Assembly (NCBI RefSeq): GCF_026210795.1
Contig: NC_089429.1
Span: 3,968,001 to 4,032,000 of the forward strand
Length of the DNA: 64,000 bases
Source of the DNA: Rhizophagus irregularis
Taxonomy: Eukaryota
Direction of reading: 5' to 3'
The notes under the pieces were generated by a model. That model was not told the origin of the DNA. It searched no databases and saw only the letters and a list, made by a program, of their open reading frames with translations. The translations under genes were made by a program, and so were the position numbers. How positions within the stretch are numbered: position 1 is the stretch's first letter; every line of letters starts with the position of its first letter. Positions 1 through 64,000 of the stretch are shown here, piece by piece.

Positions 1-21
1 GGGGGGGAGGGGGTCAAATTA

Positions 22-38902: not shown

Positions 38903-40307
38903 AATTCAAATTGGCTCTATTGGTTTATTGTGACTATATCGTCTTCTCATCCTTTGACAATTTAAATCCTTAACTTAATTTAGAATTTTTATAAAATTCA
39001 ATAAATCTTTATAAAAATTATTTATTAAATACCTTAATACCTTTTATATTGTTTAGCGTATCGACAAAAAACCAAAATCAATTCAGTTAAAATTATTACC
39101 GATTTGCTATAGATTCTGATTGGAGTTTTGAAAGTAACACAATCATCAAGTTTTGGAACACAATCGTATACAAAATCAAGTAGCACATTGGAGTTTTAAA
39201 AGTAACACAATCGTCAAGTTTTGGAACACAATCGTATACAAAATCAAGTAGTACATGCTTTTTTTTATCGTTAATCAATACATAAAAATTCAATTAGTAT
39301 AAAAAAAATTTATTTTATACTTGCTTAAATCTCACGAATGCGTCAAAAAACTTGAAAATTAAACTAATTGAATTGCGAAGTTTTTGACCTGTAAATTCAT
39401 ATGCAGGATTATAAAAAATAGTGGTTGAAAATTATACTTAATAAATAGAAAATGCTCTCGCGAAACAATAATTTAGTTAATTTAGTAGTAGAGTATTAAA
39501 GTTTACAATTTAATAAAATAATAGATAAAGTATGATTTAATTTACGATTATATATTTAATTTACGATTATATTTTTCGAACATCAAAACTAATGAAGCGA
39601 ATTCGTTAAACACCATGATTGTTATTAGCAGACCAATTAAATTAATTTTCGTTAATTAATTTTCATTAATTTTAAGCTATTGTCAAAATAAAATAAATGT
39701 TGTGGTAAAACTTCTCTGATTGAACCTCTAAATCAACCACCATAGAAGATAATTACGTGTATAAAAACATCTTTATTATTCCATAGTAAGTCCTCAAATT
39801 GACCCGCGACTCACCCACGGTAAATGCTTTAATTTACCATAAAGACATCGCGACACACCCGTGATACACCTGCGGCATACCCATGGCTTATCCAAATTTG
39901 TTTAACAAATTTGTTTAAACTATTTATTCCACATCATTGCAATTTCTTATTGTGTTCATAGATTGTAGGCATAATAATTTGATTTTATTTTTTTACAAGG
40001 ATTTTTTTTTTACACAGATTTTTTTTATTTTCCCACTCTTTTTACAAAATTCTTTTGTTTCATTAATTCTTTCGTTTTCATTAATATAATTCTTCGTTTT
40101 ATTAATTCTTTCATCTTCATTAATATTTCATTAATTCTTGTGTTCATAGATTGTAGGCGTAATAATTTGATTTTATTTTTTTTTACACAGATTTTTTTTT
40201 TTTTACATGGATTTTTTTTTTTTACGGATTTTTTTTTATTTTCCCACTCCTTTTACAAAATTCTTTCTCTTTCATTTTCATTAATATTTCATTAATTCTT
40301 TAATAAC

Positions 40308-43550: not shown

Positions 43551-44360
43551 ACGCTCTAATTTTTTTATAAAATTATGCATTTTATAACGATATTACATTG
43601 AATAAATTTAGTAAATTTTACAAGTAAATGATAATATGAAACATCATTATTCTAAACATTATACCATAATGTCAAGTGATAATAATATAAAATAAAATGG
43701 ATGTATAAAACTATAAAATGTTTGTCTAAGATATAACACTTTCAAGTTTAAAAAGTAATTATTGTTTTGTTAAAAATGGAATGGTTATTATGTGACATTT
43801 CTTCTTTAATGTATACGGCCTAAATATCTCTATATATTTGACGTTATTATACAGATCAAAAAGAATACATTTACGTAACATTTGTGTAAAGTAAGAACTT
43901 TAAAGTTTAAGCCAATTCTGACTGGTAATTTACAAAATAACAAACACATTTCTTAAAAAAATTCTGAATCAGAATACTTTTCCGGTTTTCATTTTCGATT
44001 CTGCAAAAAATTGAAAAGTTCAGGTGATAATTCAAGAAATATCCACCTATAAAAGACTAAACAATTATCAGGTTGATCAAGTTTGTGTAATACCAAATTT
44101 AATAAATTGTCTGATTAAATAATCGCGTATATTAAATGATCGCGTATATTATAAGGCTATTAATTCCTAAAAAGTCAATTTAACCACTATTTTATTTAAG
44201 ACTATTTATTTTGTACATTTTTTTTTTTTAAAAAAAAAACTTTCTTTCTGAAAGTAGAGTCTGTTGTCGGGCTGGTAGTGTGTCTCGCTACGCTCAACCC
44301 ACCTCGGCCAGGGGCCTCGCAGTACCTACATCTCCCCTCCGTGGGGTAGGAATCCCCTAT

Positions 44361-44603
44361 ATCTGTCACTATCTGTCATTAACATCTGTCATATAATAAT
44401 ATACTAAAAAAGAATGAAATAAGGGAAAAGAGAGGAAAATACGATAGAATCAGAGGGGTATGACAGATATGACGGATATGACAGATGTTTCAGAAAAATC
44501 GGGAGAGGATACTCCCAGAAAAAAGTTTTGATTTTACCCCCCCAGATCTGTCATTCTGTCATAGATCTGTCATATGATCAGGATTCAGTCTATTCATCTG
44601 TCG
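44361..44603. repeat. Iteron-like ATCTGTCA cluster (putative replication origin)
   Basis: ATCTGTCA or variants at 44361, 44371, 44384, 44546, 44554, 44565 and 44596; inverted TGAC(A/G)GAT at 44461, 44470 and 44479. Confidence 0.8.
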
Positions 44604-44720
44604 GAAGCAGTGAGATAGCAAACCGAGTAAACAGGTAGGTTAATAGCCCCTAGAAGGTCTGTAAAGCCACAGAGAGATAACCGGGTAGAAGCGCGGATCT
44701 TTGGAAAAAATACATTCGGC

Positions 44721-44730
44721 AATTGAAGAT
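44721..44730 (+). promoter_or_regulatory. AATTGAAGAT upstream conserved motif (first of 7 in the element)
   Basis: The same or a variant motif lies upstream of each + strand element gene from 44773 to 60373. Confidence 0.65.
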
Positions 44731-44772
44731 TAGGTAACTATAAATTAGTACTCGATTTAATAGAACGAAAAA

Positions 44773-47344
44773 ATGACCACTCAAGCTCAAGTTATCCCCA
44801 AATTCGGTGAACAAACGAAAGCCTTTAGTATCAATGAGCTTAAACGGCTTATTGTCGCTGCAAAGAGTATGAGTGACCTCGATCAAGCCAAGAGGTATCT
44901 TTGCAGTTATTTCATTCCCTGTGCAGATCCTCATGGGGTTTTCTGGTGGGACCCGGATAGTAAAAGTTTGAAACACGTTATTGACAAAAATATTGGTAAA
45001 CTTATCCGTCCAATTATGAAGGTATTCTACACACAACCTGAACAAGGACCCTCTCAAAAGACCGAGTTCAACATCTACAAATGGTTTATGGTCGAGAATA
45101 CCGATGTATGTAATGCAACCTGTGATCCCCATAAACAGCGAATCTTCAGATCCTTAACCGGCCAACTCTATCTAAATATCTTCCCGGGATTCCTCCACGT
45201 CTTGCGTCCGATATCCACCTTTGAGTCTACAATTCACCTCGCGGTTAAATTTATCTTCTCTCACATTCAGGATATCTGGTGTTCGGGTGATTGGAATCTC
45301 ACTGAGTATATCATCAAGTGGTTGGCCGGTGTATCTGCTGGAAGGAAGATGTACTCGATCCTTTACCTGAAATCTGGACAGGGTTGGGGCAAAGGCATTA
45401 TAACAGATTTCATTCAGCGCAGCGTCCTAGGCACTCAACTCGTTTATAAGACCAGCGATCCTCAGACGATTCGTGGAAGTTTCAATGGGCAATTACAGGG
45501 TAAGATTCTTCTTCTTCTCGAGGAAATGCCCACGGAAAAAAGCCAGTGGAATAATCTGTATCGCTCTTTAAAGGATAAGGTAACGAGTGACATAATGGAA
45601 ATCCATGAAAAATACAAGACACCAACACATTATAAAAACTTTATGTCTACTATCGTCCTAACCAACGAAAATGCTCTCAGAGTGGATAATGATGATAGGC
45701 GCACAGTGTTCTTGGATGCGTCACCATCCCGCAAGGGAGACCTCAACTACTTCAAAAAACTCGGTGACGCTATGAAATACCCAGGCGCCAGTGAGGCATT
45801 CTATGCTTATTTGAGAGCCATTGCGAATACTTACTCAGACTTCAATGGAAATCCGCCACCCATGACAACATCCAAACAGGAACATATCATCTCAACTCTT
45901 CCACCGCTATTCCAATTTATAAAGGACACATACCTCATAGTGAAAAATTATATGACCGACCTACCTGTTCAAGAATTTTATAGGGTATATACTTCATATT
46001 GCGAAACTCGTGGCATTACACCCTTATCAAAGATAAACGCTTCTAGAATCCTATCAAATGAGTTGAGTATAAATAGTAATCGGACTTATATAAATAAAAA
46101 GTTAACCCGAGTATATAGCATATCCAGGGAGGATCTTTACAATAAATACCTCGGCAAAAACTGGATCCACGAAACAGACGAGATAGATATAGAAGGAATT
46201 GATATAGAGACTTCTAAGAAACCCGCATCAGACCCCAAAGCCTTGGAAAAGTTCTTGGCAAATATATATAATCCAGCTAACAATCCACAAGACGTACAAG
46301 AGAAACCCGCTGAGAAAAAACCCGCTGAGAAAAAACCCGAACCCGCCGAGGAAAAACCCGCTGAGAAAAAACCCGCTGAGAAAAAACCCGCTGAGAAAAA
46401 ACCCGAACCCGCCGAGGAAAAACCCGCATCTGTAATTCGCAAGACTCCTCCACCGCTTCCACCCAAGCATGACCACTTAAAAGAACGTCCACAAGAGTTA
46501 AGGGAAGAACAACCGGATCCCGATGAAGATACTAGTGAGTCAAACACCGATGAACCTATAGATAACTTCTCAGACTGTTATCTATCTGACGAGGAACCCA
46601 ACCAAGAAGAACCTATCCCCGAGCCAGATAACTACGACGTTTTAGATGACTTGCTATCTGACTCAGATTTTACAACTGTAAACCCAGCTCCTGAACAACA
46701 ACCCGAGTATCCCGCAGAATCTTCTGCATCTGTCACTAAGCCTGACCCAGAACCGGCTTCTGAAGAGCAATTTATCCCAGAACCCGACACAGAACCAGAA
46801 GTTGACCGGGATCCTGAACCAAAGGGAAGGCACTCGAGCGCACTGGGCTTGGCAAGAAAGACACCGATGGGATCGCAAACCATGGGTTAAAAATTTAAAG
46901 GACCAGGTCTTCAATGATCTCTACAATACAGGTAAGGAATTATGGGCCAAGTACCAAGATGCGTCAGACGAATATGACTGGGAAATACTCGCGTTTGAAA
47001 TAGAGGAATGTCCCACAACGCGTATTGAGGACGAGTACCAGTACTACCTTATGGAGGTAGTAGACCGCTTCAAGGACTGGATTGAATATAATGGATACTT
47101 ACCTAAAATACCTAGCCGTAAAGAACTCGCAGATTTAATAAGAATATACAAGGAGAATCGTAATGCCGAGATTATTCCCACCCCCTCTGGTTATGAAACT
47201 ATGAGGGCAGATAAGGGAAAAGCGCGAGAGATCCCTGAGGAACGTCCAAAAACTGATATGGAACGTGAATGGGAGGCCGCCAATGGAATCATCGATGACT
47301 GGGACGAAGAGGATACTGAGGGCGCTATCAACGACATATTGTAA
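44773..47344 (+). CDS. SF3/D5-like helicase with winged helix and acidic Pro-rich tail (frameshift near 46822)
   Basis: Walker A SGQGWGKG, Walker B LLLLEE, motif C VLTN, DDRR; wHTH-like region 45913-46170; ORF 46802-47344 continues it after PEPK. Confidence 0.85.
46300..46427 (+). repeat. Coding minisatellite (KPAEK / KPEPAEE)
   Basis: 15-bp units AAACCCGCTGAGAAA and 21-bp variants in tandem. Confidence 0.9.
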
Positions 47345-47429
47345 GCGCTATTTGAGATTATTTCTTTTTTTTTTCGTATATATATAGAAAGATATTATTT
47401 ATAGTTGAAGACAAATCATATACATAAAA

Positions 47430-49284
47430 ATGCAATACTCAAGAATTGCCCGCACTTTACCAACACGACCTGACATCAAGGAACTTCAGTATTCCGGTGC
47501 TCGCTTTTCCAGAGGAGCTATCGCCAGACTCGGTCAGACTCTCCAGACGCGATTTCCAGATAGAAAGTTCCAGATCCCTACTTCCCTATGAAAACTGGAA
47601 ACCCGGTGGATGGACATCAGGAAACCAACCAGCCAGCCTCTTTTCACTATTAGACCATTATGATGAAGCACAACTACCGGATGACGCAGACCCTGATTAT
47701 TTTGAACGATTCATAATTTATGCAAGAGATAGTCCACCGGCCGCAGGAGGATGCAATGGGGAGCTAAATGATTGCCTGTATGAATGCCTAAAAAATATTT
47801 ACGGCACATTCTCTAAAATGCCAAAGTCAATCGAAAAGCCCGAGTATATCAAAAAGGCATTAGGTCTCAATCGCGATGCTCCCATCCCAGTTTCATGCAT
47901 GGACAAGGTTGAACAACTCGCAGGAAGTCTCGCAATTAATATTGTGGGGGACATTACCCGAATCTCTAAGAGTAAGTCCGATAGACGTGCGACTCTCATC
48001 CTGTCAGAAGGCCATTACTCCCTCGCGTTAAATCCCGGAAGACTCCACTCCAGTAAATTAGATAAAAAGCGTAATTTACCCATTGTATACCATGAAGATG
48101 GGACCAATAATGTAGTCACAATATACAACGGCAAAACGGTTAAGTCTTGCACAATTGCGCAGTTTCAAAAAACTAAGAATTCCAAAAGTTCTTTCATCCC
48201 CGTCAAGAAAAACCGTAAGACTGGAGTATATGAAACTCTTGAAGAAGCATATCAGAGAATCCACGAGGAGCGGAATTCCTTTCTACAGGAGACAAAGAAG
48301 TTCGGTTTAGGAATCGACTTATCATACCATAACTGGTCTTACAAAAGAACGGCTCTCTGGTTATTCGAACGATTAAGTGTAGGGATTCCAGCCAATGATC
48401 CTCTTGACCCGATAGAAGCAGAGTGGTTAAGTGATGCAATGATGGGAGGATTAATCTGGGCAGATAACGAGTGGAAGGGCTATGGAAGACAGTACGATGC
48501 AACAAGTTTATACCCGAGTATTCAACAATCGAATGCAAACTTTCCAATCAGACGGGGTAAATTCCAGACACTTAATGACTTTGTTGACCACAGGGGTTAT
48601 GCCTTGTATGGATTATTCCGTGCCAAGGTAAGTGGGAATAATATTCTCTTCCGACAGAATAAAAGGGGAATCTATACATTCATCGACTTACAACGAGCAA
48701 AAAAACTTGGTCTCAATATACAGTTAATACAGGATGGGAAGCCAAATGCATTGATATACGATAGAGAAGCGAGAATCCCTGGAACTGTAATATTCGGTGA
48801 GTATGTACACTTCCTCTTCAAAATTAAAAACCAGGGTGGCGTAGCTGGCCGCGTGGCAAAGCGAGTCCTCAACACATTATGGGGAGCATTATGCCAGAGG
48901 AAGCGTAATTACAAGACACTCACCGCAGATCAAACAGACCCGTTTACATTTCCAGAGGGCCATACACTCGACTCTATCATACCAGTAGGATCTGACCAGT
49001 GGCGATTCCAGTTCACAAACCCGGGTAATCCCTTCAAAGGTGAGTATCCCAGGATCGCCCCATTCTTATTAGCACGTGGTCGCAAAATCACATCTGAGGC
49101 AATTCAACCATACAAGGATAAAGTACGACGTATCCATACGGATGGATTTATTTTAGAAGAGCAGCCAGATAGCCCCGCGCTTTTCACTTGTTCAGAGAAT
49201 GCAGATACGACTCTAAAGACTTTCAAGTTTGAAACCGCGGGATACTGCCATGTGAAAAATGCGAACAAGGTTATCTGGACATGA
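47430..49284 (+). CDS. Protein-primed family B DNA polymerase-like protein with putative vOTU domain (frameshift near 47577)
   Basis: MMGG, motif A YDATSLYPS, motif B KRVLNTLWG, motif C IHTDGF; ATG at 47430 (MQYSRIAR...) joins LLPYENW after one extra base. Confidence 0.8.
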
Positions 49285-49377
49285 TTGCTAAGAACTGGTA
49301 GGTTTATTTTTTACTGACATATCGTGATGGCATAATTGAATAAACCTATGGGATATGTAATCTTACGAGATACCCAA

Positions 49378-49872
49378 ATGCAAAACACCGACGGATTAGG
49401 TAGACAAGACGATGAAAGTTTCCACGCGTGGGCTAAGCGCATTCAGAATGCTGTGCAATATTATGAGACTTGTAGTAGAATAGGTTTTCATAGGCGGCTA
49501 CCTTATCCAAGGTCTCGTCAAGCTGTATATGCTTATATTGTGCACATTAGGAGAATAGTATCACGACTACCAAATAGGTGGTACTGTACCTACTGTAAAT
49601 CTTTTATTGATCGCGGATGGGGAGCTGACGCTTTCATGGATCAAGCGGTGCGACTACATTTATATAGTTGCCCAAAGCATTTTAATTTCGACTATTATAC
49701 TCATCATGCTGAAATGATCCAGAATGCCTTTAGGAGATATATAGAAAGAAGGAACAATAAAGCGGCTAGGATAATCCAGAAAGTCGCTATCCCCTGGTTA
49801 TATAGACCAGGCTCTCCATTGATGCAAAAGGCCGAGCGACGCTTCTACTGTCTTGCAGTATCCCAAGTGTAA
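49378..49872 (+). CDS. Zinc-finger-like and IQ-motif protein
   Basis: CTYC...H...C; IQNAFRRYIERR and AARIIQK; ATG 49378 lies downstream of AATTGAA at 49334. Confidence 0.6.
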   Translation: MQNTDGLGRQDDESFHAWAKRIQNAVQYYETCSRIGFHRRLPYPRSRQAVYAYIVHIRRIVSRLPNRWYCTYCKSFIDRGWGADAFMDQAVRLHLYSCPKHFNFDYYTHHAEMIQNAFRRYIERRNNKAARIIQKVAIPWLYRPGSPLMQKAERRFYCLAVSQV

Positions 49873-49954
49873 ACCCTGAGGTTCATATTTATTTTTTCTC
49901 ATTCGAATGAACAGGTAACTGAAGATTTATATTTTTTACAAAGTACAAAGAATC

Positions 49955-50425
49955 ATGTCAACATATACCGAATTCGCAAGCATTGTTAACAGCACTGACA
50001 GCACTAGTGATGAGGTTATTTACGAGGCATCGCGCATTCAGCCTAGTGTTATCACTGACGAAACTGTCCCCAAGATTATCCGCGCATTAAAAGATACTAT
50101 AGTAGTCGCATTAGTATCTGGGTTTAGCAAAACCAGTTACCTCGTCCAGGACCACGTGAAGTATATCAAGCGAATCCAAACGGCAAATTCTCCTGTATCA
50201 TATGTGAAGTTCGTGGCCAGAAAACTCTTCCCAGATAATGCGGCATATACTGCTAAAATAGCAAAAATCCGCGAATCATACAAGAATAAACAAGCTCTCC
50301 TAGATAAGCTTGAGGCCCTCTTCGAATTGTATTATAATGCGACTAAGGACTCATCAACCGGTCCCCCAAAGCGAGCTATTACTAAAAACGAGGCTGAGAA
50401 AACCTTAACAGAACTTCTTGCATAA
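49955..50425 (+). CDS. Hypothetical helical protein (156 aa)
   Basis: Intact ORF with upstream AACTGAAGAT and downstream TATTTTTT. Confidence 0.7.
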   Translation: MSTYTEFASIVNSTDSTSDEVIYEASRIQPSVITDETVPKIIRALKDTIVVALVSGFSKTSYLVQDHVKYIKRIQTANSPVSYVKFVARKLFPDNAAYTAKIAKIRESYKNKQALLDKLEALFELYYNATKDSSTGPPKRAITKNEAEKTLTELLA

Positions 50426-50538
50426 GCGGCTCCCTGTGGTCCTACGATCCCTAGTACGAATTTAGTCTATATTTTTTATCCATGTGTAATAGGCATACAG
50501 TAATTGAAGATAGACTATAGTATAAGTAACATAACATC

Positions 50539-50965
50539 ATGTTGGACCGATTACCAGTAGAAATAGTCGAACGCATTGTCGCAAAAGATCCCGGATACTG
50601 ACCTTATTGCAGCGAGTAAGGTAGATAGAGTGTGGTGGCGAGGAAGTTCGTCGAGAGGCGTATAAGAGGTGGAAAAATTATGCCACTACGATCGGGGATG
50701 TGTACTGTGAAATCGAGCTCTCGGAAAGCATTATATAAGAGGGAAATTGACTGGATAACGTTTGAAGATGTAAACGACCTCTATAAAAGATGGATAAACC
50801 AGCTGCACGAGGGGATCAGGCTTTATATTATGGAGAAAATGCTTAGGAATGGGATGGTCGTGGACCCCCCAAGAGAGAAACCATAGAGTATGCATTAAGT
50901 GAACAAAGATGGGGAGGCGATCCTTGGGGACTGGGAGTGGTATGAATGGACTCAACAGGAGTAAG
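50539..50965 (+). pseudogene. F-box-like protein, multiply frameshifted
   Basis: Reconstructed MLDRLPVEIVERIVAKIPDTDLIAASKVDRVWW; motif at 50502; downstream frames continue into ORF 50632. Confidence 0.6.
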
Positions 50966-51485
50966 CATTTTGTACTTGACTTTCGTAGGAATTACCCTGC
51001 AGAGTCATATTTTTTAGATCCGGCCGGCATTACCGCGTAATCCCGAATTACCGAAAAAGGAAATTTATGTTACACAAGGTTCCAAACGCATTCTTACCAA
51101 ATCGATTTTTTGTGGAACGGGTATCGCACAAAAAGGAAATGATCTACGTACCGCATGAAATCACGTGACACTCTACACATTTGTTCAGGGTATCACGTGA
51201 CATGAACTCCGTTCACATTTTCTGTAATATAATCCATAGTTTTCCATGAATGCTTTTTAGGCCAATAATCCAATAACTTATTCATCAGGTATCCTCGTGT
51301 TTTGCGACAAGGACTGATGACCATGTAACCTCATCATCAGGCATCCTCGCATTTTTTGACAAGGACTGATAAGGAATGATGATAGATCTCTTACCGCTGA
51401 TCTATTGACCAAAAATTTTCGGAAAGAAAATTTTATATCTTCGTACTAACAACTCTTATATTTTACCCAACTCATACCTTCTAAC

Positions 51486-53600
51486 ATGTCTAGAAACCTT
51501 GCTAGAAGAGGTGGCGGCAGCTATAACCCTAACAGTAATAAGGCTGCTCGTCAAGAAAAGAAAATAATAAAAAACAACTCTCTGATAACTCTGGTTCCGA
51601 TAGCGATAATAATTCCCAAAAACGTTCCCGTATACTTACAAAAGACTCCATGGATGAAGACTATGAAGATTTCGTTGCCGACGCGCCGGCTGACGGTGGT
51701 TTAGTTGGTTCAACTTCGACCGCTATTCCTCAACAAAATAATTCCCGCAGCACTGCCCAAGAAAATACTCAAGCTTCTACCCCGAAAAATTCTGCTGCGC
51801 CTACTGCGCCTGGCCAAGACGCGTCTTCTGGAGCTAACGCGTCTATTCATACACCTCGAAACAAAGAAAATAACCCATCCCCTAACGCGTCCCCTAATAT
51901 GGACGTTAATGATGGTACATCGCCCTGATCAGGCTGTTGATCCCTCCCCTACCATTACCATTAATCGTCAAGATTTCCTGGCTGCGGCTGCGCCCAACTC
52001 CGCTCCCCCAAACTCTTGAGAAACTTAAAACCAATAAGGCAATTATAGAAGCCGTTAACAACTTATTTTTAGAAACGTATGAATCATATACCGGTCGTGC
52101 ACGTATGACTGGCTCGGGGACGCTAAACGTCTTATCATACATTTTCATACTGCGGAAGCTCGTGACTTGTGTGTTGGTAGCACACATTCCGACTTTCCGG
52201 ACCTTCAATTCCACCTGTACGATCCCAAACAGCTCCCGGTCCGATGAAGACCTCCGTGCAATTCAAGTAACAGATATCCCGTTCTTCATTACTAAACCGC
52301 AACTCCAATCCTATTTCAAGAAGTTTGGCAACCTCCTTACCATCCATCTTTACTCGAGGAAAGGTGCTAAGATGCAACAAGCCCGCATTGTCTATGATCA
52401 TGCCGATGCCATTTCCCGTTTCACTACTCAATGGGCAGTTTACTGCTTTTCTACCCTGCTTGCGTGTTACCCCGTGCCACTACTCCTTGGATCAAAAAGC
52501 CGCTCGTAGAGCGTTCGTGTTGTTCTCTGGACTTCCCGCTAATACTAAAGATATTCATCTCGCTCCTCTGGTTAAAGAACATGGAGCAAAAGCAATTAAC
52601 ATTCCCTTTCCCCTGAATTCTTATAAACCTAAACCTTGGGCTTATGTCACCTTCAACTCGCAGGAAACAATGGATGCCGCTATGGAGCAAACTATTGGTT
52701 TTCAAGGTCGTACTCTTCGGTGGGGTTCATCCAATGATTCGAAAGCTCTTTGCCATCGTTGTGGTAAACTTGGTTGTGCTCCTACCTCTTGCCCGCTTAA
52801 TCAACGCCGTGGTCGCTCACGTACACGTGACCCTGTGGCTGCTCTTAAAGAACGTTTCAATATTGGCCAAAAGCCCGTCCAATAGAACGCACCGCGCAAT
52901 AATTCACGTTCTCGTTCTCGATCTAAATCTCGGGATCGTTCTGCTTCTGCTCACCGTTCTAATTCCAATTCCAATAGTTCTAATACTAATGGTAATAACA
53001 ATAATAATAACAAACCCCCCTCTTCTGGTTCGCCTGCCCATGGACGTGCACCTTCGATTACCCGAAAAGGCAAAGATAGATCTGTTTCTTTTTCGTCCAA
53101 TGCTCGTGCTCCGCTCTCTGATTCGAATTCTTCTAGTGCGCCTAGAGGCCGCTCTTAACATTCTTAATGTTCTAAAGAACCTTCAACAAGATGTTGCTCG
53201 TGTGGAATCCCGCATTTCCTCCCTTGAACTAAACAACCAACGGCTTTCTGCTATAGAAGGTCATTTAGGCATTAGTCCTCCCTCTGTACCTATCATTAAT
53301 TCTGAACCTGATCAAATGGAAGAAGATCCTCCCGAAATCACTGGCACTTTAATCCAACATCCCAATGCTCCCTCATCATCTTCTGGTTCTATGAAACCCC
53401 CTTCCCCTAAATCTATTTCCAACAAGGCTCCATAGCTCGCTTGCTACTTCTAACCCTTCCCAGCAAGACGAATTGAACTCAGTTATTCAAGATCAAAAGG
53501 CGATTAAAGATACTTTACAATCGCTCACTGGTTCCATTCAAGGTTTCATTGCTTCTCTTGGTGGTTCACCCTCCGATCGAGCTTCAGCTCCTTCGCAATA
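51486..53600 (+). pseudogene. LINE ORF1 (RRM-like domains + zinc knuckle), frameshifted
   Basis: IQVTDIPF..LQSYFKKFG, WAYVTFNS, CHRCGKLGCAPTSC, RS-rich and coiled-coil tail spread over several frames. Confidence 0.75.
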
Positions 53601-53649
53601 ACTGACTTCTCACCTTTTTTTCCCCGTACTTTATTATCATTGTGCTCTA

Positions 53650-56600
53650 ATGTCAGACAATTTTAATTATGATACATTTGTTCGAAACCCACCCAACCCC
53701 GTAGATACTTATATCTTTTCTGAACATGAATCTTTATTTACTACCCCAAATTCTTCCCCTATCCCTAATTCCTTTAATATTTCATCTTTTAATGTTAATG
53801 GTCTTCGCCATAATAGTCAAATTAAATTTGAACAAATCTCAAACTTTTTTAATCTTAAACATATTACCTTTGGTGGTATCGTTGATACCCATTTAACCCC
53901 TAAACAAATTCATTTCTTATCTAAACGCCTCCCTAATTATACTGTCTTTTCATCTGATATAGATAAAACCAAACAGGTCAATTCTACTGGTGGCGTCTCC
54001 CTTTTCATTGAAAAATCCCTTGCTTCCCATGTACAAGATTTTGTTTCACATTCCTCACGAATTTTATCTGTTGACCTTTATTTTAAAGGCAACGTTAAAT
54101 TTCGTATTTTTGTGATCTATATTCCCCCTATTTCTGATTCTAAATTACGATCAGAAACTATTGATCTTCTTTTACAACTTTTGGTGCAAACTAAACAACA
54201 AAAATTTTATCATGCCATTTGTGGTGATTTTAATATGCACCTAGATACCTATTACCCTATTTACTTTAATCGCCCTGCTACCGCTTCGCAACGATCATAT
54301 CGTTTGCTACATCATCTTTTATCTCATGGCTATGAAGAAACTATTCCTGTTAACGCTTCTGACTCCTTAGGCACCTTTCACCGTGATGACCAAGTTACTC
54401 GTATAGATTATGTTTGGTCTTGCCCAATGCTAAAAGGCTTCGCTCTCACTTCTTATATCTTTGACGCCCAAGACACCTGCTCTTCGGACCACAATCCTAT
54501 CATCACGTATTTTGATGATTCACTCTTGGTTGCGTCTATCAAGGTTGCTCGTGCTAAACAACTTCAACGACAGACTCGTCGCATTTTTAAATTTGATTCC
54601 GTCACTGCTCAGCAATGGGAATCCTTTTCTACTTGTACTGACTCCTTATGCAACGTTTCTCCTTCCACCTTTTCAACATGGCACATCAATCAACAATGTG
54701 AATATTTACATTCCCGTATCGTGAAAGCTGCTAATGCCTCTCTTCCGTCTGTCAGCGGTTGGCAACCAATTTACACCTACGATGCCTAAGGATTTGGAAG
54801 CTTTAACTCAACATTATCGTTTCCTCAGCCGTCTTCTGCATTCGATACGTTTATTGCGAAAATATCCTTCCACATATTATAATAGATATGAACGTACTTG
54901 GTCCGCTCATTTCATTCGACTTCAAAAGATTCTTCATCTTTATAAGAAGGTTATTCCTTCTCCCCCTATTTTACCTACTTCTTTATCCACATGTAGGCAA
55001 GACGATTTTAAATGTTTATTGGAATCTTTAAAGTCTATCTCCAATACCCTCCATGGTTTCCTTCTTCTCAAAGAAAAAGACTTTCAGGACTCTTCCATTC
55101 GTGCCAAATTGGACGATCGGGACAACAATTTTGAAACTGATATTTCTTCCTTTATTAATTCTGCTCTTTCAAGAACTCGACGCCGTATCACTTTGGATCG
55201 TGTCTTTATTGATTGCCCTACGCATCCCAAACTTTTAACGGACCCACTCGACATTGATAACGCTGTTATCAACCATTTCCAAAATTCCGTACCTATCAAA
55301 TCGACTCCTCCTATTAACATTTCTGCTTTACCGGAAAGATGGTCTTCCGCTTATCGCCCTATGGACGATGTGGATTCCTCCATTTATAATTCTTTATTGG
55401 ATCCTCCTACTCTGGACGAATGGTTGTCTACGGTCTCTTCTATGCCTAATGACAAAGCTCCTGGTCCCTCTATGATCACTTATGAGATGCTTAAGCATCT
55501 GGGCCCTAACACTTCCGCTTTGATCTTAATCCTGGTCCAATCATGTCTTCGTACTGCAGATATTCCTGATTTATGGCGTCAAGCTATGGTTTTCCCTATC
55601 CCTAAACCTCACGAATGGAAATGTCAACTCAAGAACACAAGACCTATTACTTTACTTGAAGTAATTAGGAAATCTTTGGTTAAACTTTTTTACAACCGTC
55701 TCGCTTCCATTTTGGCTTCAAATGAAGTGCTCAGAGGAGGAAACTTCGCTGGTCTGCCTGGTGGTTCTTGTCGCGACCCTATTGTCGTTTTTGAATCTAT
55801 TATCCATGATGCTCATGTCAACAAATCGCCGCTTTGGATCCTTTCGCAAGATATTTCGAAGGCTTTCGACTCGGTTGATCTCAAGATGTTGCGTTTCGCT
55901 CTTGAACGCATTAAACTTCCTGCTTCTGCTACAAAATTTATTTTATCCCTTTTCATGAATCGCTCCAATCGCGTTTTTACTGCTCATGGAACTACTCCTT
56001 CTTACCGTGTTCGAATTGGTATAGATCAAGGCGAAGTTATCTCTCCCTTACTTTGGGTTATATATATAGACCCTTTGTTAACTGTTCTTAAGAATGAAAT
56101 GATGGATCCGTATACGCTTCATGCTCCTTTATTATCTAATCCCTTGGCTATGACCAATTCTGATGGATTACGTATCAATAACTTGGTCTTTATGGATGAT
56201 TCCACTTTAATTTCATCATCCAAATCCGGAATGGAATCGATGCTCTCTATTACGGAAGAATTTTATCAAATTAATAATACTTCCGCTAATCACAACAAAT
56301 ATGTTTTAATTACTAATTCGTTGCCTTCCACTTCAGTTCCTTCACCTTCTCCTGTCGTGTTTGACTTACATTTATCTGGATTGAACAAAGTTCCTTCCAT
56401 TTCTATTGTGCCCATCTCCATGAATAGCTCTTTCCGCTTCCTGGGCGTCTGGTTCAATGTCGCTGGTTCTCGCGATTTTGTTAAAAAGCAAGTTGCTAGA
56501 GAATGTAACTCTTTCGCTGCTACCGTTCGTCCTGCCAAATTATCTGCTAAACAAGTTGTCTATTTGCACAACACCGTCCTTATCCCGAAATTGGAATATC

Positions 56601-59272
56601 GCATGCAAGTCACTCACCTCTCCGAATCTGAATGTGCCTCGGCAACCAGTAGTATTCGTTCCATGGTTAAACATAAGGCCAATTTTTCACGTGTACTCCC
56701 AGATTCTATTTTGTTTTTATCTCAAGGCTTGGGATTGATTAATTTATTTTTTCACCAATCACAAACACATTTAACTAATTTATTTTTATTAGCTAATTCT
56801 TCTTCTTCTTTTATGAAAAATTTATTTTTCTATAGATTACGTTTAATTCAATTTTCTTTTTTGATTCTTATTTCTCCGTTGTTAGTTAAAGATTGGACTA
56901 TATGGTCTAAACTTTTGCTTTTAAGCAGGATTATATCGCTTGCACTATTGCTCTCCTGACTGCCACTCCTTTCAAGTTGTCGTATTCTCCACTTTCAGCT
57001 TTGCCTAACCTTACTATATCCGATGGTCATACGCCTTTATTTGAAATAATGACCCCAAAGATTTTTATCTCTTACTTCCGACGTCTAAGAAGTCTGCAAC
57101 TCTATTACCTATCTCAATTTATCACGCCTCAAGGAACCCATATGATCACTTGGAATGTTTATCTTTCCAGCTTATCAAGTAGGAAAGGTCATCGAGTCCT
57201 CCCGCATAAGTGGTTCAATGACATTCATCAAAATGTCACCGTTCCAAATTCCAATTCTCTACTCTTGGATCAATTCTCTTCCGAAGCCGTTCCTTCAGGC
57301 GTTGATTTGGTTCCTGCCTTTGGTTCCTCTAGAAAATCCATGAAATGGATCGTGTCTTTGGACGAAGATGGTTCCCCCTTTATTTGGAAAACAGCTCGGC
57401 AAACAACAATATTCTTGCAAGATTGTCCATTGGACTTCTGATTGTGTGACTCGACCTAATGATGTTATCACGCTCACTCCTTGTCCTGGTTGTTCTAAAC
57501 ATATACCGGTTACCCATACTAAAAGTAATCCTACAGATGTTACTCCTTTATGTATCATCCCAAAACTTTCTCCTCTTAGATCTTTAATTCTCCCGACAAC
57601 GCAGGAGCGTATTAGACATGATACCTCTACTATTACTTCTCCTTTCACTTGGGCGGACCTTGATGAAACTGTAAGATCATATTATGGTCGTTTGGACACT
57701 CAACCTAATTTTTCACAAGTAGAGATGGTTACTCCTCTCCTACTCTTTCTTCTTCCTCTTTGGGCTCGGCTGCTTCTCTCGCTTTTGCTGCCTCACCGTT
57801 AGCGACTCCTCCTAATAACCATTATTGTTTTTATACTGATGGTTCTTTAATTAACCTTGGCACTCCTGATGTTTCTATGGGTTGGTCTTGGGTTCAAGTC
57901 CTCGATGGCGCTGGTTTTTTCCAATCTATCGCTGCTTACGCTCATGGAATTATTCGTAACTGGCCTTCCTCTACGAAGGCTGAAATTGCCGCTATACATG
58001 CTGCTCTTACAGTCACTCCTCCCTTCTCAACGGTCGACTATTTATACTGACTCTCAATCTGCCATAGATGGTCTTCGTCTATGTGCTACCTTTTCTTATT
58101 CCAATAGTAGGCTCTATTACAAGACCACCAATTTTGAACTTTGGGCTATTATTGAACGTCTCATTTTCTCTAAATCTTTATCTGTCACGGCTGTTAAAGT
58201 GAAAGGTCACTCTGGTAATTTCTACAATGACTACGCGGACTCATTGGCCAATTCTGCGCATACTTCCTCTTCAGCAGTTCTTCTTTCTGATTTGGATCAA
58301 GTATCTCCTCACGATTTCTTATTAAAATATGATGATATTTTATGCGAATCCAACCCACGACGCCTATTCAAGCAATATTCGCAAATGCTGTGGATGCATA
58401 GACTAACGCGTTTATCACGTTTTAATTTCACCATTGATTTATCTTTTACTTCAGATTTCGTGATTGATTGGGATCTTACCTGGTTTTCGCTCAATTCTGA
58501 ACCTCAACATGATGCCTCTTTTACTCGAGCTCATGCTTCCTCTCATCGCACCTTCAAATTCAAACTCTTTTTGGAAGATTTGCCTACTTTGGAACATCTT
58601 AAAAGAATTCGCCCGGACTTGTATATCGACATTTTATCATGTCGTTCATGTCTCGACTCCAAGGAAGATTTCATGCACCTTTTTATGTGCAAATGTAGAC
58701 GAATCGCTATGGAACAGATTCTCCTCTCCTACCAACATCATTTTATCACCAAACTTCAAGAAGCTGGTGATCTCGTTAAGAAAGATCCCTCTTTACTTAT
58801 TAACAAATTTAAATCTCTTCCTTGTTGGTCCTTTTCTTCTTCAAATTGGACTTCATATAGCCTTGTCCGTGGCTGCCTTCCGAAATCCTTTGTTGAAATT
58901 TTTGAAGAACTTTCTATCCCACGTAATTCTGCGATGAAGGTTATCTCTGCCATCCACAATCACTTTATCCAAAAGATCAGAAAACGAATTTGGCTACCGC
59001 GTTCCTATGACAAATCTAAATGGGAAAATGCGATGAACATCACTCAAAAACTTAAACTTTCTCGGCCTTCAAATTTGCCAAAGTCTACGTACTTACCTTT
59101 CTCAACTTTACCTCCTCCGACCCTTTCCGACGCCGCACGTGACTCCGACGTTGATTATTTAAAGAACTCGATGAAATATGGTTTGCCTTGGTTTAATCAC
59201 TATTCGGGTTTTATGGGTCGTCTAACGGTGCAACTTACTAACAGCTTTAGCAGGGTGGTGTGTCGATTTTAA
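53650..59272 (+). pseudogene. LINE ORF2 (APE, RT, RNase H, Zn finger), few frameshifts
   Basis: FNVNGL, CGDFN, RIDY, SDH; KAFDSV, GIDQGEVISP, FMDD, RFLG; YTDGS, YTDSQ, KGHSG; CRSC...H..C. Confidence 0.92.
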
Positions 59273-59626
59273 TAATGGGCGCATTGTTCGTTGGTTTGCT
59301 TGCATAGTTGCTTCTTCTTAGGTTGGAATATATCTAGGCGGGGGATCAGGATAGTTTTAGTGTTATGCGATTTTTTCCTTTCTGAATTAATTTTATAGCT
59401 TTATTACTGTTTTGGAGACTATATAGTTTTATTTTTAGTTAATTTTATTTTTCTTTTTTGTACTTTGAAAATTTTATTTTATTTTTTTGTAAGTTCGTTA
59501 AATAATTTTAATAAAGATAAAGGCTACTATGCCATATTTGCCTTGACAAGGACTGATGACGATGTCACTTGGTTATTGTAAATTGAAGATAACAATTAGG
59601 TATGTAGACACGTACAGAAAAAAGAC

Positions 59627-60211
59627 ATGTCATACCCTTATATAACTAATCCTATAACCGGACGTCCAATCCGTGTTGGTGGAGATACCTTTAATCGAAT
59701 AGTTATGGAATCCCATGATTATATCGATGGAAGGCTTGTCCGTAGACAAACCGTACCGCCTCCACCCCAGGAACAACCTGTATATTTAAATACAGATACA
59801 GGACGCTATATTCAACACGGTACTAGAACGTATCATAGACTGGTTGAGAGTGACTACGAGGTAGTTGAGGACTACTACCTTGTTCATTCTGAAGAGGAGG
59901 AGCTTATAGATGAAATCATCAATGAAACACGCTATAATGAGGAAAATCTTGATGGCCAGCGGTTAACTTTCAATAATATACAACAAATCAGAGCCGCTAT
60001 TCAAGCTGACCAAGATGAATATGATGATTTTATCTTACAGCAGAATACGACTAACGGGACACCTTCCTCCGGTCCTTCCGGTCATCCACGAACTTTGGAG
60101 GACCATGCCCCGAGACTTGCAGAGCTTAATATTGAGTTGTGTAGGGAATGTCTCATGCCTGTAAGCCCAAGTGACTTAACGGACAAGTTGTGCAAGGACT
60201 GCGCTTCCTAA
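59627..60211 (+). CDS. Protein with two 2-cysteine-adaptor-like repeats and a C-terminal C4 zinc ribbon
   Basis: NPITGRPIRVGGDTFNRI and NTDTGRYIQHGTRTYHRL; CREC...CKDC; AATTGAAGAT at 59581. Confidence 0.65.
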   Translation: MSYPYITNPITGRPIRVGGDTFNRIVMESHDYIDGRLVRRQTVPPPPQEQPVYLNTDTGRYIQHGTRTYHRLVESDYEVVEDYYLVHSEEEELIDEIINETRYNEENLDGQRLTFNNIQQIRAAIQADQDEYDDFILQQNTTNGTPSSGPSGHPRTLEDHAPRLAELNIELCRECLMPVSPSDLTDKLCKDCAS

Positions 60212-60372
60212 TGGTGAGTCCTCCGGTCCTCTGGTCTTCCGGTCTTTCCAACGGTTGATCCCTTAATGCCAGTTATTTTTTTTTTATACAAATGACAGGT
60301 ATTTAAAGATAACAATATATAAAAAAGATTGTGAAGGATACTAAGTGAGCGAATAATCAAAGAAAGATAGCC

Positions 60373-60924
60373 ATGTCAACATCAATCGTAATAAACCAGT
60401 GTCAGAACTGTGGAGTATTCTCTGCAAAAGCGGCATATAGAGGATTATCCAGCGTGTTGTATAGACAGATTATAAAGAAGATTGGTGACGAGAGTGAACC
60501 TTTACAAGCCTTGGGACTTGCCAGGGATAAGTTGGTCCAGATTATCCGTCGGGCAAGTAATGCGGATTTTACGCAATTATTCACACAAAGACTAGATATG
60601 AAAATTATGGACGGAGATTCATACGAGGATACTAGGAAGTGGCTTCTTGAACAGCTTATAGCCATTGGATGTGACAGTGGGGAAATTGCCTTATATCAGT
60701 TCTTACGGAATATATACCCGGATGGTATTGACGAACCCTTTACTACATTCTATGAGAACTATGTAAATCATGTAAGAAATCCGATGACTAAGAACTTTGC
60801 TTCTCGAGCCTTAGGAGCTATTGGATTAAAAGCTAGGATGCTACGGATTGACTTCGAAGGACGTAAAAAAAGCGCCATGATTCTTAGGGCTTCTGCGGAA
60901 GAACTTCGTGAGATGGGTTGCTAA
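60373..60924 (+). CDS. Protein with a C-terminal winged helix paralogous to the helicase wHTH
   Basis: QFLRNIY..D.PFTTFYENY...PMTKNFASRAL aligns by eye with QFIKDTY..D.PVQEFYRVY...PLSKINASRIL. Confidence 0.65.
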   Translation: MSTSIVINQCQNCGVFSAKAAYRGLSSVLYRQIIKKIGDESEPLQALGLARDKLVQIIRRASNADFTQLFTQRLDMKIMDGDSYEDTRKWLLEQLIAIGCDSGEIALYQFLRNIYPDGIDEPFTTFYENYVNHVRNPMTKNFASRALGAIGLKARMLRIDFEGRKKSAMILRASAEELREMGC

Positions 60925-61301
60925 AGCAACCAGATTCTTACAAAATACTATTGATCCCTACTCGTAATGCTCGACGGTCCATATGACCCTTAGAAAAGAT
61001 CTGTAAAAGGACCCCGATGCCTTCTATTATTTTTTTATTATCCAAAGGGTGACTAGACTTTAGGACTTCATATCGGAAGAATAACTCCTTTACGGTCTCA
61101 GATTTTGGAATTTCAGTCTTCGCGGTCCTATCCCGTACTTTTGCTAAGAATTTTTGGAAGTCTGATCAGGGTTTTACCAGATAGTCCGTAGGCTTCCCGA
61201 AAGACGTACTTAATCCAGGTATCTGCGTTCTTAGCTATAATACCAGATACGAGGAGGTGTTTTCTCTCTTTAGGCGATGGATATTCCCGAGCGAAACTCA
61301 A

Positions 61302-62126
61302 TTAGCTGGGAGGACTTTTTGCTTCAGCTACAGCTTTCTGGCCATAAGGACTAAACTTTGATCGAACTGGGTTCAAACTCGGATCGAACGGGGATTGAAC
61401 TGAGTTCGAACTAGGATTGAACTGAGATTGATCAGTGATCGAACTGAGACTAGTATCCCATCTAACCCGAATAGATAACGGATCGCTCTTGGATCTTCTA
61501 AGATCAAATACTATAAATTCGCGTTGTAGAGTAAGGTCATCGATTACTGGAGCTAGTGACTCCGATTCTTCTGTATACTGGCGGATGATCCTCTTAGTAT
61601 CGGTCAAACTTCCGTGACCTCCATGTAGGGAAATATAATTCACATTTTCACGAATAGCCTTGGGAATGGTAAAGAATCTTTGGGCCACATAGATACACGA
61701 GATATTTTTGTGACGCCCGTGTGTAAAAAATCCAGTGATGAGATCCTGGGTTTTTTTAGGCGCATCCATCAAATCCTCGAAGATTACCACAGTAGCCTGG
61801 GTGGAGTTGAAGTCCTTAACATTTGGAATCTCACTATGGGATACTGCGGTAAACGGAATTTCTTCTTCTTTGAAAAAATCACGTACGACTGCCCACTTCG
61901 GTTCATCGAGGTATCTGCCAACTAGAATTACCGCATCACATAATATGTACCTTTCGCCATCCTCCTTTGCCTTCTTGTCTCCCATTAACAAATTAATAAT
62001 CATAGTTGTCTTACCCGAGTCAGAACTTCCTGCTACGGCAAGACGGAAAGGCCATGATGGGGCAAACTCATTACCCTGTCTCGAGTCGGTCGTGTACTCG
62101 TCCAAATTGTATACATAAAGATCCAT
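61302..62126 (-). CDS. A32-like (FtsK/HerA) genome-packaging ATPase; C-terminus probably extends to about 61050 through frameshifts
   Basis: Walker A GSSDSGKT, Walker B VVIFED, A32-type GRHKNISCIYVAQ....PKAIREN. Confidence 0.88.
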   Translation of the reverse strand: MDLYVYNLDEYTTDSRQGNEFAPSWPFRLAVAGSSDSGKTTMIINLLMGDKKAKEDGERYILCDAVILVGRYLDEPKWAVVRDFFKEEEIPFTAVSHSEIPNVKDFNSTQATVVIFEDLMDAPKKTQDLITGFFTHGRHKNISCIYVAQRFFTIPKAIRENVNYISLHGGHGSLTDTKRIIRQYTEESESLAPVIDDLTLQREFIVFDLRRSKSDPLSIRVRWDTSLSSITDQSQFNPSSNSVQSPFDPSLNPVRSKFSPYGQKAVAEAKSPPS

Positions 62127-62157
62127 TTGAATTTTATTCTATCTTAGTTTAAATACG

Positions 62158-62862
62158 ATGTCGACACCAATTGCAATTTATACTCCTTCAGAGCCTACTG
62201 GACCGCCTCCTAGGGATTTGCGTGATATGAATAATATACCATTAGTTGCGGTAATTAAGGATCTAACAGATTTTTTAACTGTCAGTGATCGCATGGTTGT
62301 TAATCGAGATGTACAAAATGCAAACCATCGTCTTAAACATGCTCTTAATTTATTAATTCATCGCTGTAGAGAAACATACGAAGAACGCGATATATTAAAA
62401 GCAGAACGTGATCGATCTCGAAAAGAACGTGATGAATTACAAGATGAACTCGAGGTTCAAACGGGTTTGTTAGGTCTTACACAAGATGAGCTAAATAACG
62501 TACAAGATACTATTACTAGTTTAGAAGCTAATTTGGCTGAATTGGAACATGAGTTTGGTGGTATGCGGACGACTAATCGTCGTCTTCAGCAGCAATATAA
62601 TCTTATGAGAGGAGAACGTAATAGAGCTATAGGTGAACGTAATAGAGCTATAGGCGAGCGTGATGTGGCACGAAATCGGCTTGTATATGCCAATAATCGG
62701 GTTCTTTTTGGAATTCGGACATTGGGACGTCTTAGGAATCGACTTTTCCAACAAATAGCCGCTCTGCGTATCCAAGTACAATGGTTTCGGATTAGACAAT
62801 TGAACCCTCCTCCACCTCCTCTCAACCATCCACAAAATACGATATGGCTGCCGTTGGTATAG
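62158..62862 (+). CDS. Coiled-coil protein, probable N-terminal part of the Gag-like gene
   Basis: Heptad-rich ORF with RNRAIGE repeats ending in poly-Pro; overlaps the next ORF by 19 nt. Confidence 0.65.
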   Translation: MSTPIAIYTPSEPTGPPPRDLRDMNNIPLVAVIKDLTDFLTVSDRMVVNRDVQNANHRLKHALNLLIHRCRETYEERDILKAERDRSRKERDELQDELEVQTGLLGLTQDELNNVQDTITSLEANLAELEHEFGGMRTTNRRLQQQYNLMRGERNRAIGERNRAIGERDVARNRLVYANNRVLFGIRTLGRLRNRLFQQIAALRIQVQWFRIRQLNPPPPPLNHPQNTIWLPLV

Positions 62863-64000
62863 CTGCCCCCATATTTCATGGTCGGGAAGATGAAGATCTT
62901 AATCTTTTTATTGATAACTTTTTAGGGTATATTAATACCGTTGGTATTGATCCATTGGACGATGCCGGTGCGCCTCCGGGTCGGGTGCGAGCAATGGGGG
63001 TTCTTCGTAGCTGTATGAGAGATGAAGCGGCGAGGTGGTTTGATGCAGAACTTACTGGAAAAAATTGGGAACTCTCGAATATTCGGTTAGTGGCTACTGC
63101 AAATGGTGGAGCCGGTGCTACTCGCCGAGCGTTCAGAGCTTTAGCTGTTCCTGAGGTTGCTAATGGATTACATGTTGTACTACTTACTCCCGGGTCTGAT
63201 GCTGATGTATATTCAAGGGTTGCAGGTAATGCGGCGAGAACCGTTGGAGAAACATTTTTCCCATCACGCGCTGATATCGTTAGAACGAATTTTAAAGTTG
63301 AAGAGCAGTGGAGGCGTGCGGGCGGACGTCCTACTCATCAACCCGTTAATGGGTTGGGAGATCATGGAGGTCCATTCAATGCTGCTGCCCAGAATCAACC
63401 GATAGTCTTACAGGGGATTCTCCTGGATCAAGCATTTATGCATATGCGCACAAATTTTCCAACCGTCGTGGAAGAAAGACTTCAAATACGATTTAGTAAC
63501 CTTTACCAGGAACAAGGTGAACCTGTTCGATCTTACTATAAGCGAGTTGAGAGGGCTGGGGATATTGTAGGATATAATCGAATTATGGTTACTGACCAGT
63601 TCTATAGAGGACTTTTGCCGGAAAACGTTATTGAAGCTTCCAGAATCGGGGCGGCACCTCTTAATATATTAATCGATAGATTGAGTGATCTTGAGCGACG
63701 AAAGGGCGAAATGTTCTATGGATTACAAAGGCGTCAGGGTATTGAAAAAGCTAAAAAAGAGGAATTGGCTGGCTATACTCATCCCGTGACTCCACATGAA
63801 GGTGCTGTAATACAAAGGTCAACAGACGTTATTACTCAAGAACGATTACAAGAATTGCTCCAGCCGCAGCCGAGGAACTTACCAAGAACTTCCAGGCACA
63901 ATTTAAACAATTACAAGCATCTAAGCCAGTTCGTAAACCACCGGTCTATAGACAACAGATTAAACCTATTCGGCCGAAGCCACGGCCACGCGTTGTTCAG
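62844..64000 (+). CDS. Retrotransposon Gag capsid-like protein (open to the window end; not in the ORF track)
   Basis: Manual translation has no stop: APIFHGREDEDLNLFIDNF, LRSCMRDEAARWFD, MHR-like LYQEQGEPVRSYYKRV, DQFYRGL. Confidence 0.75.
   Translation, partial: MAAVGIAAPIFHGREDEDLNLFIDNFLGYINTVGIDPLDDAGAPPGRVRAMGVLRSCMRDEAARWFDAELTGKNWELSNIRLVATANGGAGATRRAFRALAVPEVANGLHVVLLTPGSDADVYSRVAGNAARTVGETFFPSRADIVRTNFKVEEQWRRAGGRPTHQPVNGLGDHGGPFNAAAQNQPIVLQGILLDQAFMHMRTNFPTVVEERLQIRFSNLYQEQGEPVRSYYKRVERAGDIVGYNRIMVTDQFYRGLLPENVIEASRIGAAPLNILIDRLSDLERRKGEMFYGLQRRQGIEKAKKEELAGYTHPVTPHEGAVIQRSTDVITQERLQELLQPQPRNLPRTSRHNLNNYKHLSQFVNHRSIDNRLNLFGRSHGHALF

Follow-up and report, generated by a model that had tools for sequence, protein, structure and literature searches.

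A Maverick/Polinton-type element of Rhizophagus irregularis with a Gag gene beside its A32 packaging ATPase

Ever since Polinton capsids were identified elsewhere, it has been an open question why none is seen in fungal Polintons, and G. intraradices is still listed as unsolved (PMC7805220). The same question is raised by a 64,000-nucleotide stretch of R. irregularis DNA (NC_089429.1, positions 3,968,001 to 4,032,000), in the following called the window. Its right part belongs to a Maverick/Polinton-type element that is multicopy in Rhizophagus-type fungi. This copy is decayed, and its left 11.6 kb lie inside the window, with the features collected in Table 1.

The element begins at position 44253 with AGTAGAG, where the GC content rises from 0.26 (positions 1-44252) to 0.42, in agreement with the original prediction of a GC-richer cassette. 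A leading AG is a Polinton trait. As a further hint of a boundary, three contigs from one sequencing run diverge before 44266 into unlike AT-rich sequence. No inverted copy of the left terminus was detected within the window, and the right end of the element lies outside it. Public contigs covering 44245-46280 revealed a diverse multicopy family in all four runs and do not delimit the terminal inverted repeat. In three runs, loose contig ends were seen at 44743, leading into another possible start codon, a hint without explanation; one run recorded as RNA contained 5% of the words. A LINE of 8.2 kb interrupts the element and is no part of it: it is bounded by a 15-bp target duplication (51356-51370 and 59543-59557), and its flanks carry on a local tandem repeat across the insertion site. 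Without it, the visible element measures 11,561 bp, close to the predicted 11.5 kb. Four core genes of this copy are broken, i.e. those for helicase, PolB, ATPase and Gag. Shared regulatory motifs had also been predicted, and shared motifs are indeed present: AAYTGAAGAT, a pattern picked post hoc from the data, occurs five times in the window versus 0.91 expected, a number reached by none of 100 shuffles, and four of the five sites lie 37-52 nt upstream of element ORFs. In addition, a T-tract follows within 130 nt after each of the seven plus-strand genes (background 11%). Among the accessory ORFs, the one at 50539 has an N-terminus that, on visual inspection, resembles an F-box.

Table 1. Features of the element and of its nested insertion, in window coordinates
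Feature	Position	Strand	Evidence and remarks
Left terminus and leader, probable left terminal inverted repeat	44253..44772	+	GC step, AGTAGAG start, contig ends
SF3 (D5-like) helicase with acidic/Pro-rich repeat tail	44773..47344	+	DUF5906 E 1e-17, Pox_D5; frameshift near 46823, break by tblastn
Protein-primed polymerase pPolB, ~620 aa	47430..49284	+	PF03175 E 1.7e-6, above cut-off; broken in this copy
Accessory ORF, 174 aa	49348..49872	+	ORF listing
Accessory ORF, 156 aa	49955..50425	+	After PolB in other copies too; fused to PolB in 6 gene models
Broken accessory ORF	50539..50886	+	AAYTGAAGAT motif upstream
Nested non-LTR retrotransposon (LINE): RRM ORF1, endonuclease, RT, RNase H	51371..59542	+	Pfam; frameshifted
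Accessory ORF, 194 aa	59627..60211	+	Weak 2-cysteine adaptor match, PF08793 E 0.001, below cut-off
Accessory ORF, 183 aa	60373..60924	+	Similar ORF convergent with ATPase in locus L005
A32/FtsK-type packaging ATPase	60941..62126	-	PF04665 E 4.6e-11
Coiled-coil ORF	62158..62862	+	Head-to-head with ATPase, 31 bp between starts; overlaps the start of Gag, which is in a different frame
Gag with retroviral CA fold (NTD with insertion of about 130 residues, CTD)	62844..64000	+	Runs off window; frameshift near 63863-63887

The helicase, PolB and A32 ATPase motifs claimed originally are borne out by the Pfam matches in Table 1. The helicase also matches PHROG primase-helicase families; no primase domain was recognisable in its ORF, which forms a separate S3H gene adjoining PolB. 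Relatives of the polymerase have 617-648 aa. Motifs A and B as well as TDGF were present in all 34 sequences and DTD in none, the first Asp of motif C being absent. The Cys motif of a putative vOTU domain was found in 33/34 and its His motif in 34/34 sequences, with about 160 residues from His to motif A, evidence that consists of motifs and length. On this basis, rather than on a fold, PolB appears to have a mavirus-like layout with vOTU present and exonuclease absent. According to the part of PMC11161782 available to us, mavirus-like virophages share with it the half-size pPolB, the putative TP-vOTU-palm layout, the apparent loss of the exonuclease, the missing first Asp of motif C and the separate S3H, whereas mavirus has a jelly-roll MCP, a penton and a cysteine protease, none of them seen in the visible part of the element. 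The likeness in motifs and layout may be due to convergence. Atlas neighbours of PolB include a 623-aa cluster of Preplasmiviricota, and a PDB sequence search with PolB returned nothing. The ATPase frame is open to 61302, and its C-terminal third lies past a stop and a frameshift; relatives have about 395-430 aa, and the Walker A/B and arginine-finger columns are kept across 46 sequences. In the portion seen of a preprint, Glomus/Rhizophagus ATPases cluster with Maverick-Polintons (bioRxiv 2026.06.19.733378).

As predicted, Pfam analysis of the main ORFs and of 58 further stop-free frames of at least 55 aa in the visible 11.6 kb gave no match to a capsid or integrase family. This part contains no unassigned frame above 220 aa, small ORFs being considered by Pfam only, and no rve integrase, the right end lying outside the window. 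Catalogued Mavericks from Glomus/Rhizophagus (P_Gi1.1, P_Gi1.2, Polinton-1_GI) resemble the element in host group and in size, two of 11.0 and 12.0 kb having no MCP, penton or cysteine protease and one of them, Gi1.2, an ATPase (PMC4028283 Table S1). Polintons devoid of an MCP usually have no ATPase either (PMC4028283). We consider it likely that the complete element is without a jelly-roll capsid. A conventional or very divergent jelly-roll module beyond the window, making this an ordinary Polinton-like virus with Gag-protease as an accessory, appears quite improbable: once the remainder of Gag-protease is added to the 11.6 kb in view, the element is already longer than the catalogued Glomus Mavericks of 11.0-12.0 kb (a comparison by size), in which no capsid was found, and five R. 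irregularis genomes yielded no MCP in a survey whose listed profiles do not include Polinton profiles (PMC10640383). In its favor are the right end outside the window, the late discovery of capsids in other protist Polintons, and L022, which among viral contigs has the most similar ATPase (33%, the best of six distant IMG/VR contigs obtained with the ATPase alignment) and encodes an adenain-like protease and capsid-sized ORFs; the PolB profile did not match its large ORF. Scans of IMG/VR viral contigs with Gag-protease, ATPase, PolB and the PolB alignment gave no relative, nor did GTDB scans and phage records.

The predicted Gag-like ORF was upheld by concordant evidence. It has no Pfam match itself (62844-64000), and its identity comes from Atlas features, Pfam matches of relatives and the predicted fold. 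The model (pLDDT 81.8; 33 in a single-sequence prediction) has a two-domain retroviral capsid fold. In the VIA comparison, CA-type proteins fill each of the top 36 rows, and the first unrelated row has a Z-score of 4.7; HIV CA aligned with Z 9.9 over 150 residues, Z 9-10 being moderate for a helical protein, and Foldseek E-values were only 0.005-0.05. The fold is shared by the domesticated CA proteins Arc, PEG10 and PNMA2. PDB sequence searches gave nothing clear with one query (A1) and, with another (A2), PEG10 at E 0.0014, level with an unrelated match. A retropepsin (PF13650) was found in the relatives P0001, P0019 and L008 and would fall beyond the window in this copy. Its motif L[AV]DTCANA is present in 59 of 62 full-length models. 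Of the 62, 58 stop at the protease C-terminus, none shows RT or another domain behind it, and none has a zinc knuckle; a Lys run ends 11 of the 12 metagenomic Gags listed. In L008, an A-run links Gag to the overlapping protease frame, which then stops, followed by a convergent ORF. Ty3/Gypsy elements (Metaviridae) have the same CA fold, retropepsin and Gag/protease frameshift layout, but the RT/RNase H/integrase after the protease, the 5′ LTR and the zinc knuckle are absent here. Distant relatives with an N-terminal coiled coil and zinc knuckle, presumably LTR elements, form a separate branch in the Gag tree (FastTree, midpoint root, 40 of 55 rows). The clade on the side of the element is poorly supported (0.52), and we therefore claim no Gag donor.

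Whether Gag belongs to the element can be judged from the junction of ATPase and coiled-coil ORF. Their start codons are 31-54 bp apart in 10/10 sequences, and the junction is kept in all nine informative soil-metagenome loci, down to 35% identity; the Gag start lies beside it in five of five informative loci, and the protease follows in the single locus long enough. For the ATPase, 12 of 28 pairs were saturated and 16 could be estimated, 15 of them with dN/dS of 0.03-0.13; values were 0.21-0.47 for Gag (10 pairs) and 0.30-0.89 for the weakly constrained coiled-coil ORF. Since the junction recurs in diverged loci under purifying selection, the Gag module is almost certainly integral and not a nested insertion. 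Other copies show the co-occurrence and order that had been proposed as a check: on one 50,541-bp contig the order by accession is Gag-protease, ATPase, PolB; and Gag-protease and ATPase are at most five accession numbers apart in four of five pairs looked up. Less favorable are the remaining pair, 25 accession numbers apart, and the 12 contigs below 300 kb with Gag-protease, of which at least 6 also have PolB or ATPase among the matches listed. A reading in which the Gag ORF comes from an LTR retrotransposon of its own, landed beside the ATPase of this copy, is exceedingly improbable and was rejected. Gag and retropepsin are LTR-element genes and one nested insertion is already present, but there is no place for a 5′ LTR before gag because only 31-54 bp separate the start codons, in 9/9 loci with saturated synonymous sites, and no RT follows the protease in L008 or the full-length models.

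The chimeric structural module of the original prediction is thus supported by co-occurrence, gene order and fold, while its "undescribed lineage" was overstated. Capsid-less Glomus/Rhizophagus Mavericks are already catalogued (PMC4028283 Table S1; PMC7805220), compared here by description, not sequence, and with no mention of Gag or retropepsin in the part of PMC4028283 available; excerpts of PMC11952901 and PMC8647823 report a recent expansion of Mavericks in Glomerales. NCBI taxonomy lists a "Rhizophagus glomeromycete fungus MELD virus" (taxid 2707321), and the legend of Fig. 5 in Starrett et al. 2021, as far as the article was accessible, carries Gag/retropepsin and S3H labels for an unnamed element (PMC8502044). 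Taxon and legend suggest that this gene map has already been drawn, and that element is probably of the same family as ours, although "NC" stands among its labels where zinc knuckles number 0/62 in this family. We found no literature text discussing the map, and the accessible text of PMC8502044 neither discusses nor tests it.

We slightly favor the reading that in this Maverick/Polinton lineage of Glomerales a retrotransposon-type Gag(-retropepsin) is a stable neighbor of the A32 ATPase and likely serves as a particle replacing the jelly-roll module. By analogy to mavirus, the short pPolB would start at the ends of a linear genome and copy it while the SF3 helicase opens the duplex. Gag would be made in excess and Gag-protease via frameshifting at the conserved A-run, and the retropepsin would mature the shell, a task that otherwise falls to the cysteine protease missing here. 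DNA would be loaded or condensed by the ATPase, whose gene abuts the same 31-54-bp intergenic region as the structural genes, and an integrase encoded beyond the window would insert the element. Against this, retroviral capsids have, to our knowledge, no portal, and no A32 ATPase is known to serve a Gag shell. Chances are about even that Gag builds particles carrying the DNA of the element. A capsid swap has a precedent in Bidnaviridae, which in the available part of PMC11161782 likewise combine a Polinton-type polymerase with an unrelated capsid; theirs is of parvovirus type with an ssDNA genome, whereas here the capsid is that of a retroelement and the A32 ATPase is kept.

Alternatively, Gag-protease could be old captured cargo with a non-virion job, e.g. 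against host LTR retrotransposons or in shielding replication intermediates in the hypha, the element being a capsid-less self-synthesising transposon. Glomus Polintons have been read as cases of capsid loss for a transposon lifestyle (PMC7805220), domesticated CA proteins have the same fold, and no relatives were found among IMG/VR viral contigs. We regard this as rather unlikely: it leaves unaccounted for the strong conservation of the ATPase, its head-to-head tie to the Gag module and the conserved Gag/protease frameshift layout.

Taken further, the favored particle-replacement reading would describe an integrating DNA-to-DNA virus of mycorrhizal fungi with a retropepsin-matured, A32-filled virion of retrotransposon-derived Gag, a hybrid of Polinton replication and retroviral capsid with no reverse transcription and possibly with transcription by a helper giant virus, a picture that we hold only tentatively. 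If Gag does serve as the capsid, retroviral-type capsids can carry genomes without any RNA stage, a single element would unite two virus realms, and a dsDNA virus-like agent mobile between nuclei or individuals would exist in arbuscular mycorrhizal fungi.

The GC-richer cassette of the original prediction begins at window position 44253, where GC rises from 0.26 to 0.42, and Pfam matches for SF3/D5 helicase, pPolB and, on the minus strand, A32 ATPase bear out its core genes. A LINE has inserted where the element carries a short tandem repeat. Since this repeat runs on in both LINE flanks, the element halves were once contiguous, and 11,561 bp are left after LINE removal, close to the 11.5 kb proposed. 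The element itself does not qualify as an LTR retrotransposon. By tblastn with intact relatives, this copy has breaks in four genes (helicase, PolB, ATPase, Gag), some of which may be assembly indels. Where homologues of the Gag, the PolB or the ATPase carry a species name, it is Rhizophagus irregularis or R. clarus; the remainder are metagenomic. The TCTGTCA and GAACTGA repeats possibly serve as binding sites or arose by slippage, and the contigs diverging at the helicase promoter motif could represent a different subfamily, a different gene or the element's right end.

Features of the window and their positions
Feature	Position	Remark
LINE fragments	6490-7872, 18530-23887, 28659-30407	more diverged; similar endonuclease/RT/RNase H frames (by eye)
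Kinase + Sel1-repeat gene, pieces	9918-12463	by eye; gene kind expanded in Glomerales
AT-rich repeats	25547-26190, 30783-30965	also in contig L004
Degraded frames	33230-38905	presumably resembling Plavaka/CMC-type DNA transposase
Three 856-bp tandem copies	36317-38782	within the degraded transposase-like region
TCTGTCA and complement	44380-44580	short repeated words near left end
Point of contig divergence	44743	in three runs, contig agreement extends to the helicase promoter motif; a different possible start codon follows
Nested LINE, near full-length	51371-59542	15-bp target duplication each side; many frameshifts
RRM, endonuclease, RT, RNase H	between 52105 and 59272	LINE domains (Pfam), RRM in ORF1
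GAACTGA repeats	61380-61460	in ATPase tail

Using the ATPase, 21 metagenome loci were fetched, 10 of them close (67-100%) and one of these short of upstream DNA. At all nine remaining close loci the coiled-coil ORF lies head-to-head with the ATPase, 31-54 bp apart, and the Gag start is present wherever the locus reaches far enough (5/5). Both Gag and protease stand beside the ATPase in the soil locus L008, whose Gag is 35% identical to that of the window. The dN/dS values were 0.21-0.47 for Gag, 0.30-0.89 for the coiled-coil ORF and 0.03-0.13 for the ATPase (a single near-identical pair at 0.27; 12 of 28 pairs saturated). NCBI gene-set pairs were picked for contigs of equal size, and neighbourhood was judged by accession numbers. 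One 50,541-bp contig carries Gag-PR, i.e. Gag joined to retropepsin (GET67062/63), ATPase (GET67067) and PolB (GET67074/75), by accession number in the gene order of the window. Gag-PR and ATPase are at most five accessions apart in four of five pairs and 25 apart in the fifth; PolB and ATPase are 6-7 apart in two further pairs. As counter-evidence, of 12 small contigs with Gag-PR, just six had PolB or ATPase among the matches listed. With the co-occurrence and gene order found in other copies, the Gag module is part of the element, and a nested insertion of Gag is highly improbable. In L004 (1189-1879), an ATPase of the element type is truncated and gives way to AT-rich repeats; this contig later turns bacterial-looking and is possibly a chimera.

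The Gag-like ORF is a real Gag. The window Gag has a Retrotrans_gag value of 0.93 (Atlas features), and PF03732 matched 17 of 34 relatives scanned, three above cut-off. An AlphaFold model built on 55 sequences (pLDDT 81.8, pTM 0.71) gave retroviral CA and PEG10 as top Foldseek ranks, yet with E of only 0.015-0.05. In a structure-only search the first 36 rows were all CA-type proteins and the best unrelated row had Z 4.7; the model matched HIV CA with Z 9.9 (rmsd 4.2, 150 residues aligned, model 4-281) and RSV CA with Z 9.8. This CA-type fold and the position of Gag and coiled-coil ORF beside the ATPase in other copies support the proposed chimeric structural module; that Gag-PR is instead non-virion cargo seems rather unlikely. 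Among the matches listed, all 62 longer Gag relatives are gene models of 677-921 aa, 57 with a precomputed aspartic-protease domain, 59 keeping L[AV]DTCANA and none with a zinc knuckle, which is present in five distant relatives. In metagenomes the protease forms separate ORFs of 200-255 aa, linked to the element in L008 alone. There the protease frame and the end of Gag overlap at an A-run; beyond the protease stop lies a convergent ORF. A Lys run ends 11 of the 12 long metagenomic Gags listed. By its sequence, this arrangement would match the layout of a programmed frameshift.

In the 34 PolB sequences compared (54-88% identity, 617-648 aa), motifs A and B are invariant, motif C reads TDGF, and a Cys/His pair in the N-terminal part has vOTU-like spacing. 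According to the sections available of Krupovic et al. 2024 (PMC11161782), mavirus pPolB is half-size (TP-vOTU-palm, without exonuclease) and active despite lacking the first motif-C Asp, with S3H separate; judged from sequence features, the element PolB resembles it in architecture. Its Atlas neighbours include a 623-aa Preplasmiviricota cluster. The nearest viral contig by ATPase (33%) is the IMG/VR contig L022; its region 1-15944 holds A32 ATPase, an adenain-like protease and a fibre-like gene, along with one large ORF of no assigned family. In its workings the element corresponds to a Polinton whose polymerase is mavirus-like, while its assignment to the Polintons is provisional as to integrase, TIRs and capsid.

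That a jelly-roll capsid is hidden downstream appears improbable. Glomus elements of 11,954 and 11,019 bp are without MCP, penton and protease, the latter keeping its ATPase (PMC4028283 Table S1), and the text portion consulted describes nine MCP-less elements that lost ATPase and protease too. For G. intraradices, an excerpt of PMC7805220 states that no MCP was found so far. Maverick expansion is covered in excerpts of PMC11952901 and PMC8647823. Of the supposedly undescribed lineage, a gene map was likely drawn before, as Gag/retropepsin and S3H labels appear in figure material of PMC8502044 and its preprint; the element was probably mapped once, but without analysis. Within the partial texts searched, no paper discussed a Gag-bearing fungal Polinton, and the portions of PMC4409740, PMC11296320, PMC3671162, bioRxiv 2025.04.19.649669 and 2026.06.19.733378 leave Gag unmentioned.

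The shared regulatory motifs were also recovered, with patterns set after inspection: AAYTGAAGAT precedes four element genes and a T-tract follows 7/7 plus-strand genes, such tracts occurring once in 8.7 kb of coding sequence. Together these motifs suggest one dedicated transcription signal set. One R. irregularis strain carries an integrated giant virus that is related to asfarviruses and has RNA polymerase genes (PMC10640383, in part), so that transcription by such a helper is conceivable. We consider it reasonably probable that this is a Polinton-type element in which retroelement Gag and retropepsin would have replaced jelly-roll capsid, penton and cysteine protease, while the ATPase would have been retained and co-regulated with the Gag module; Gag would form particles into which the DNA may be loaded.
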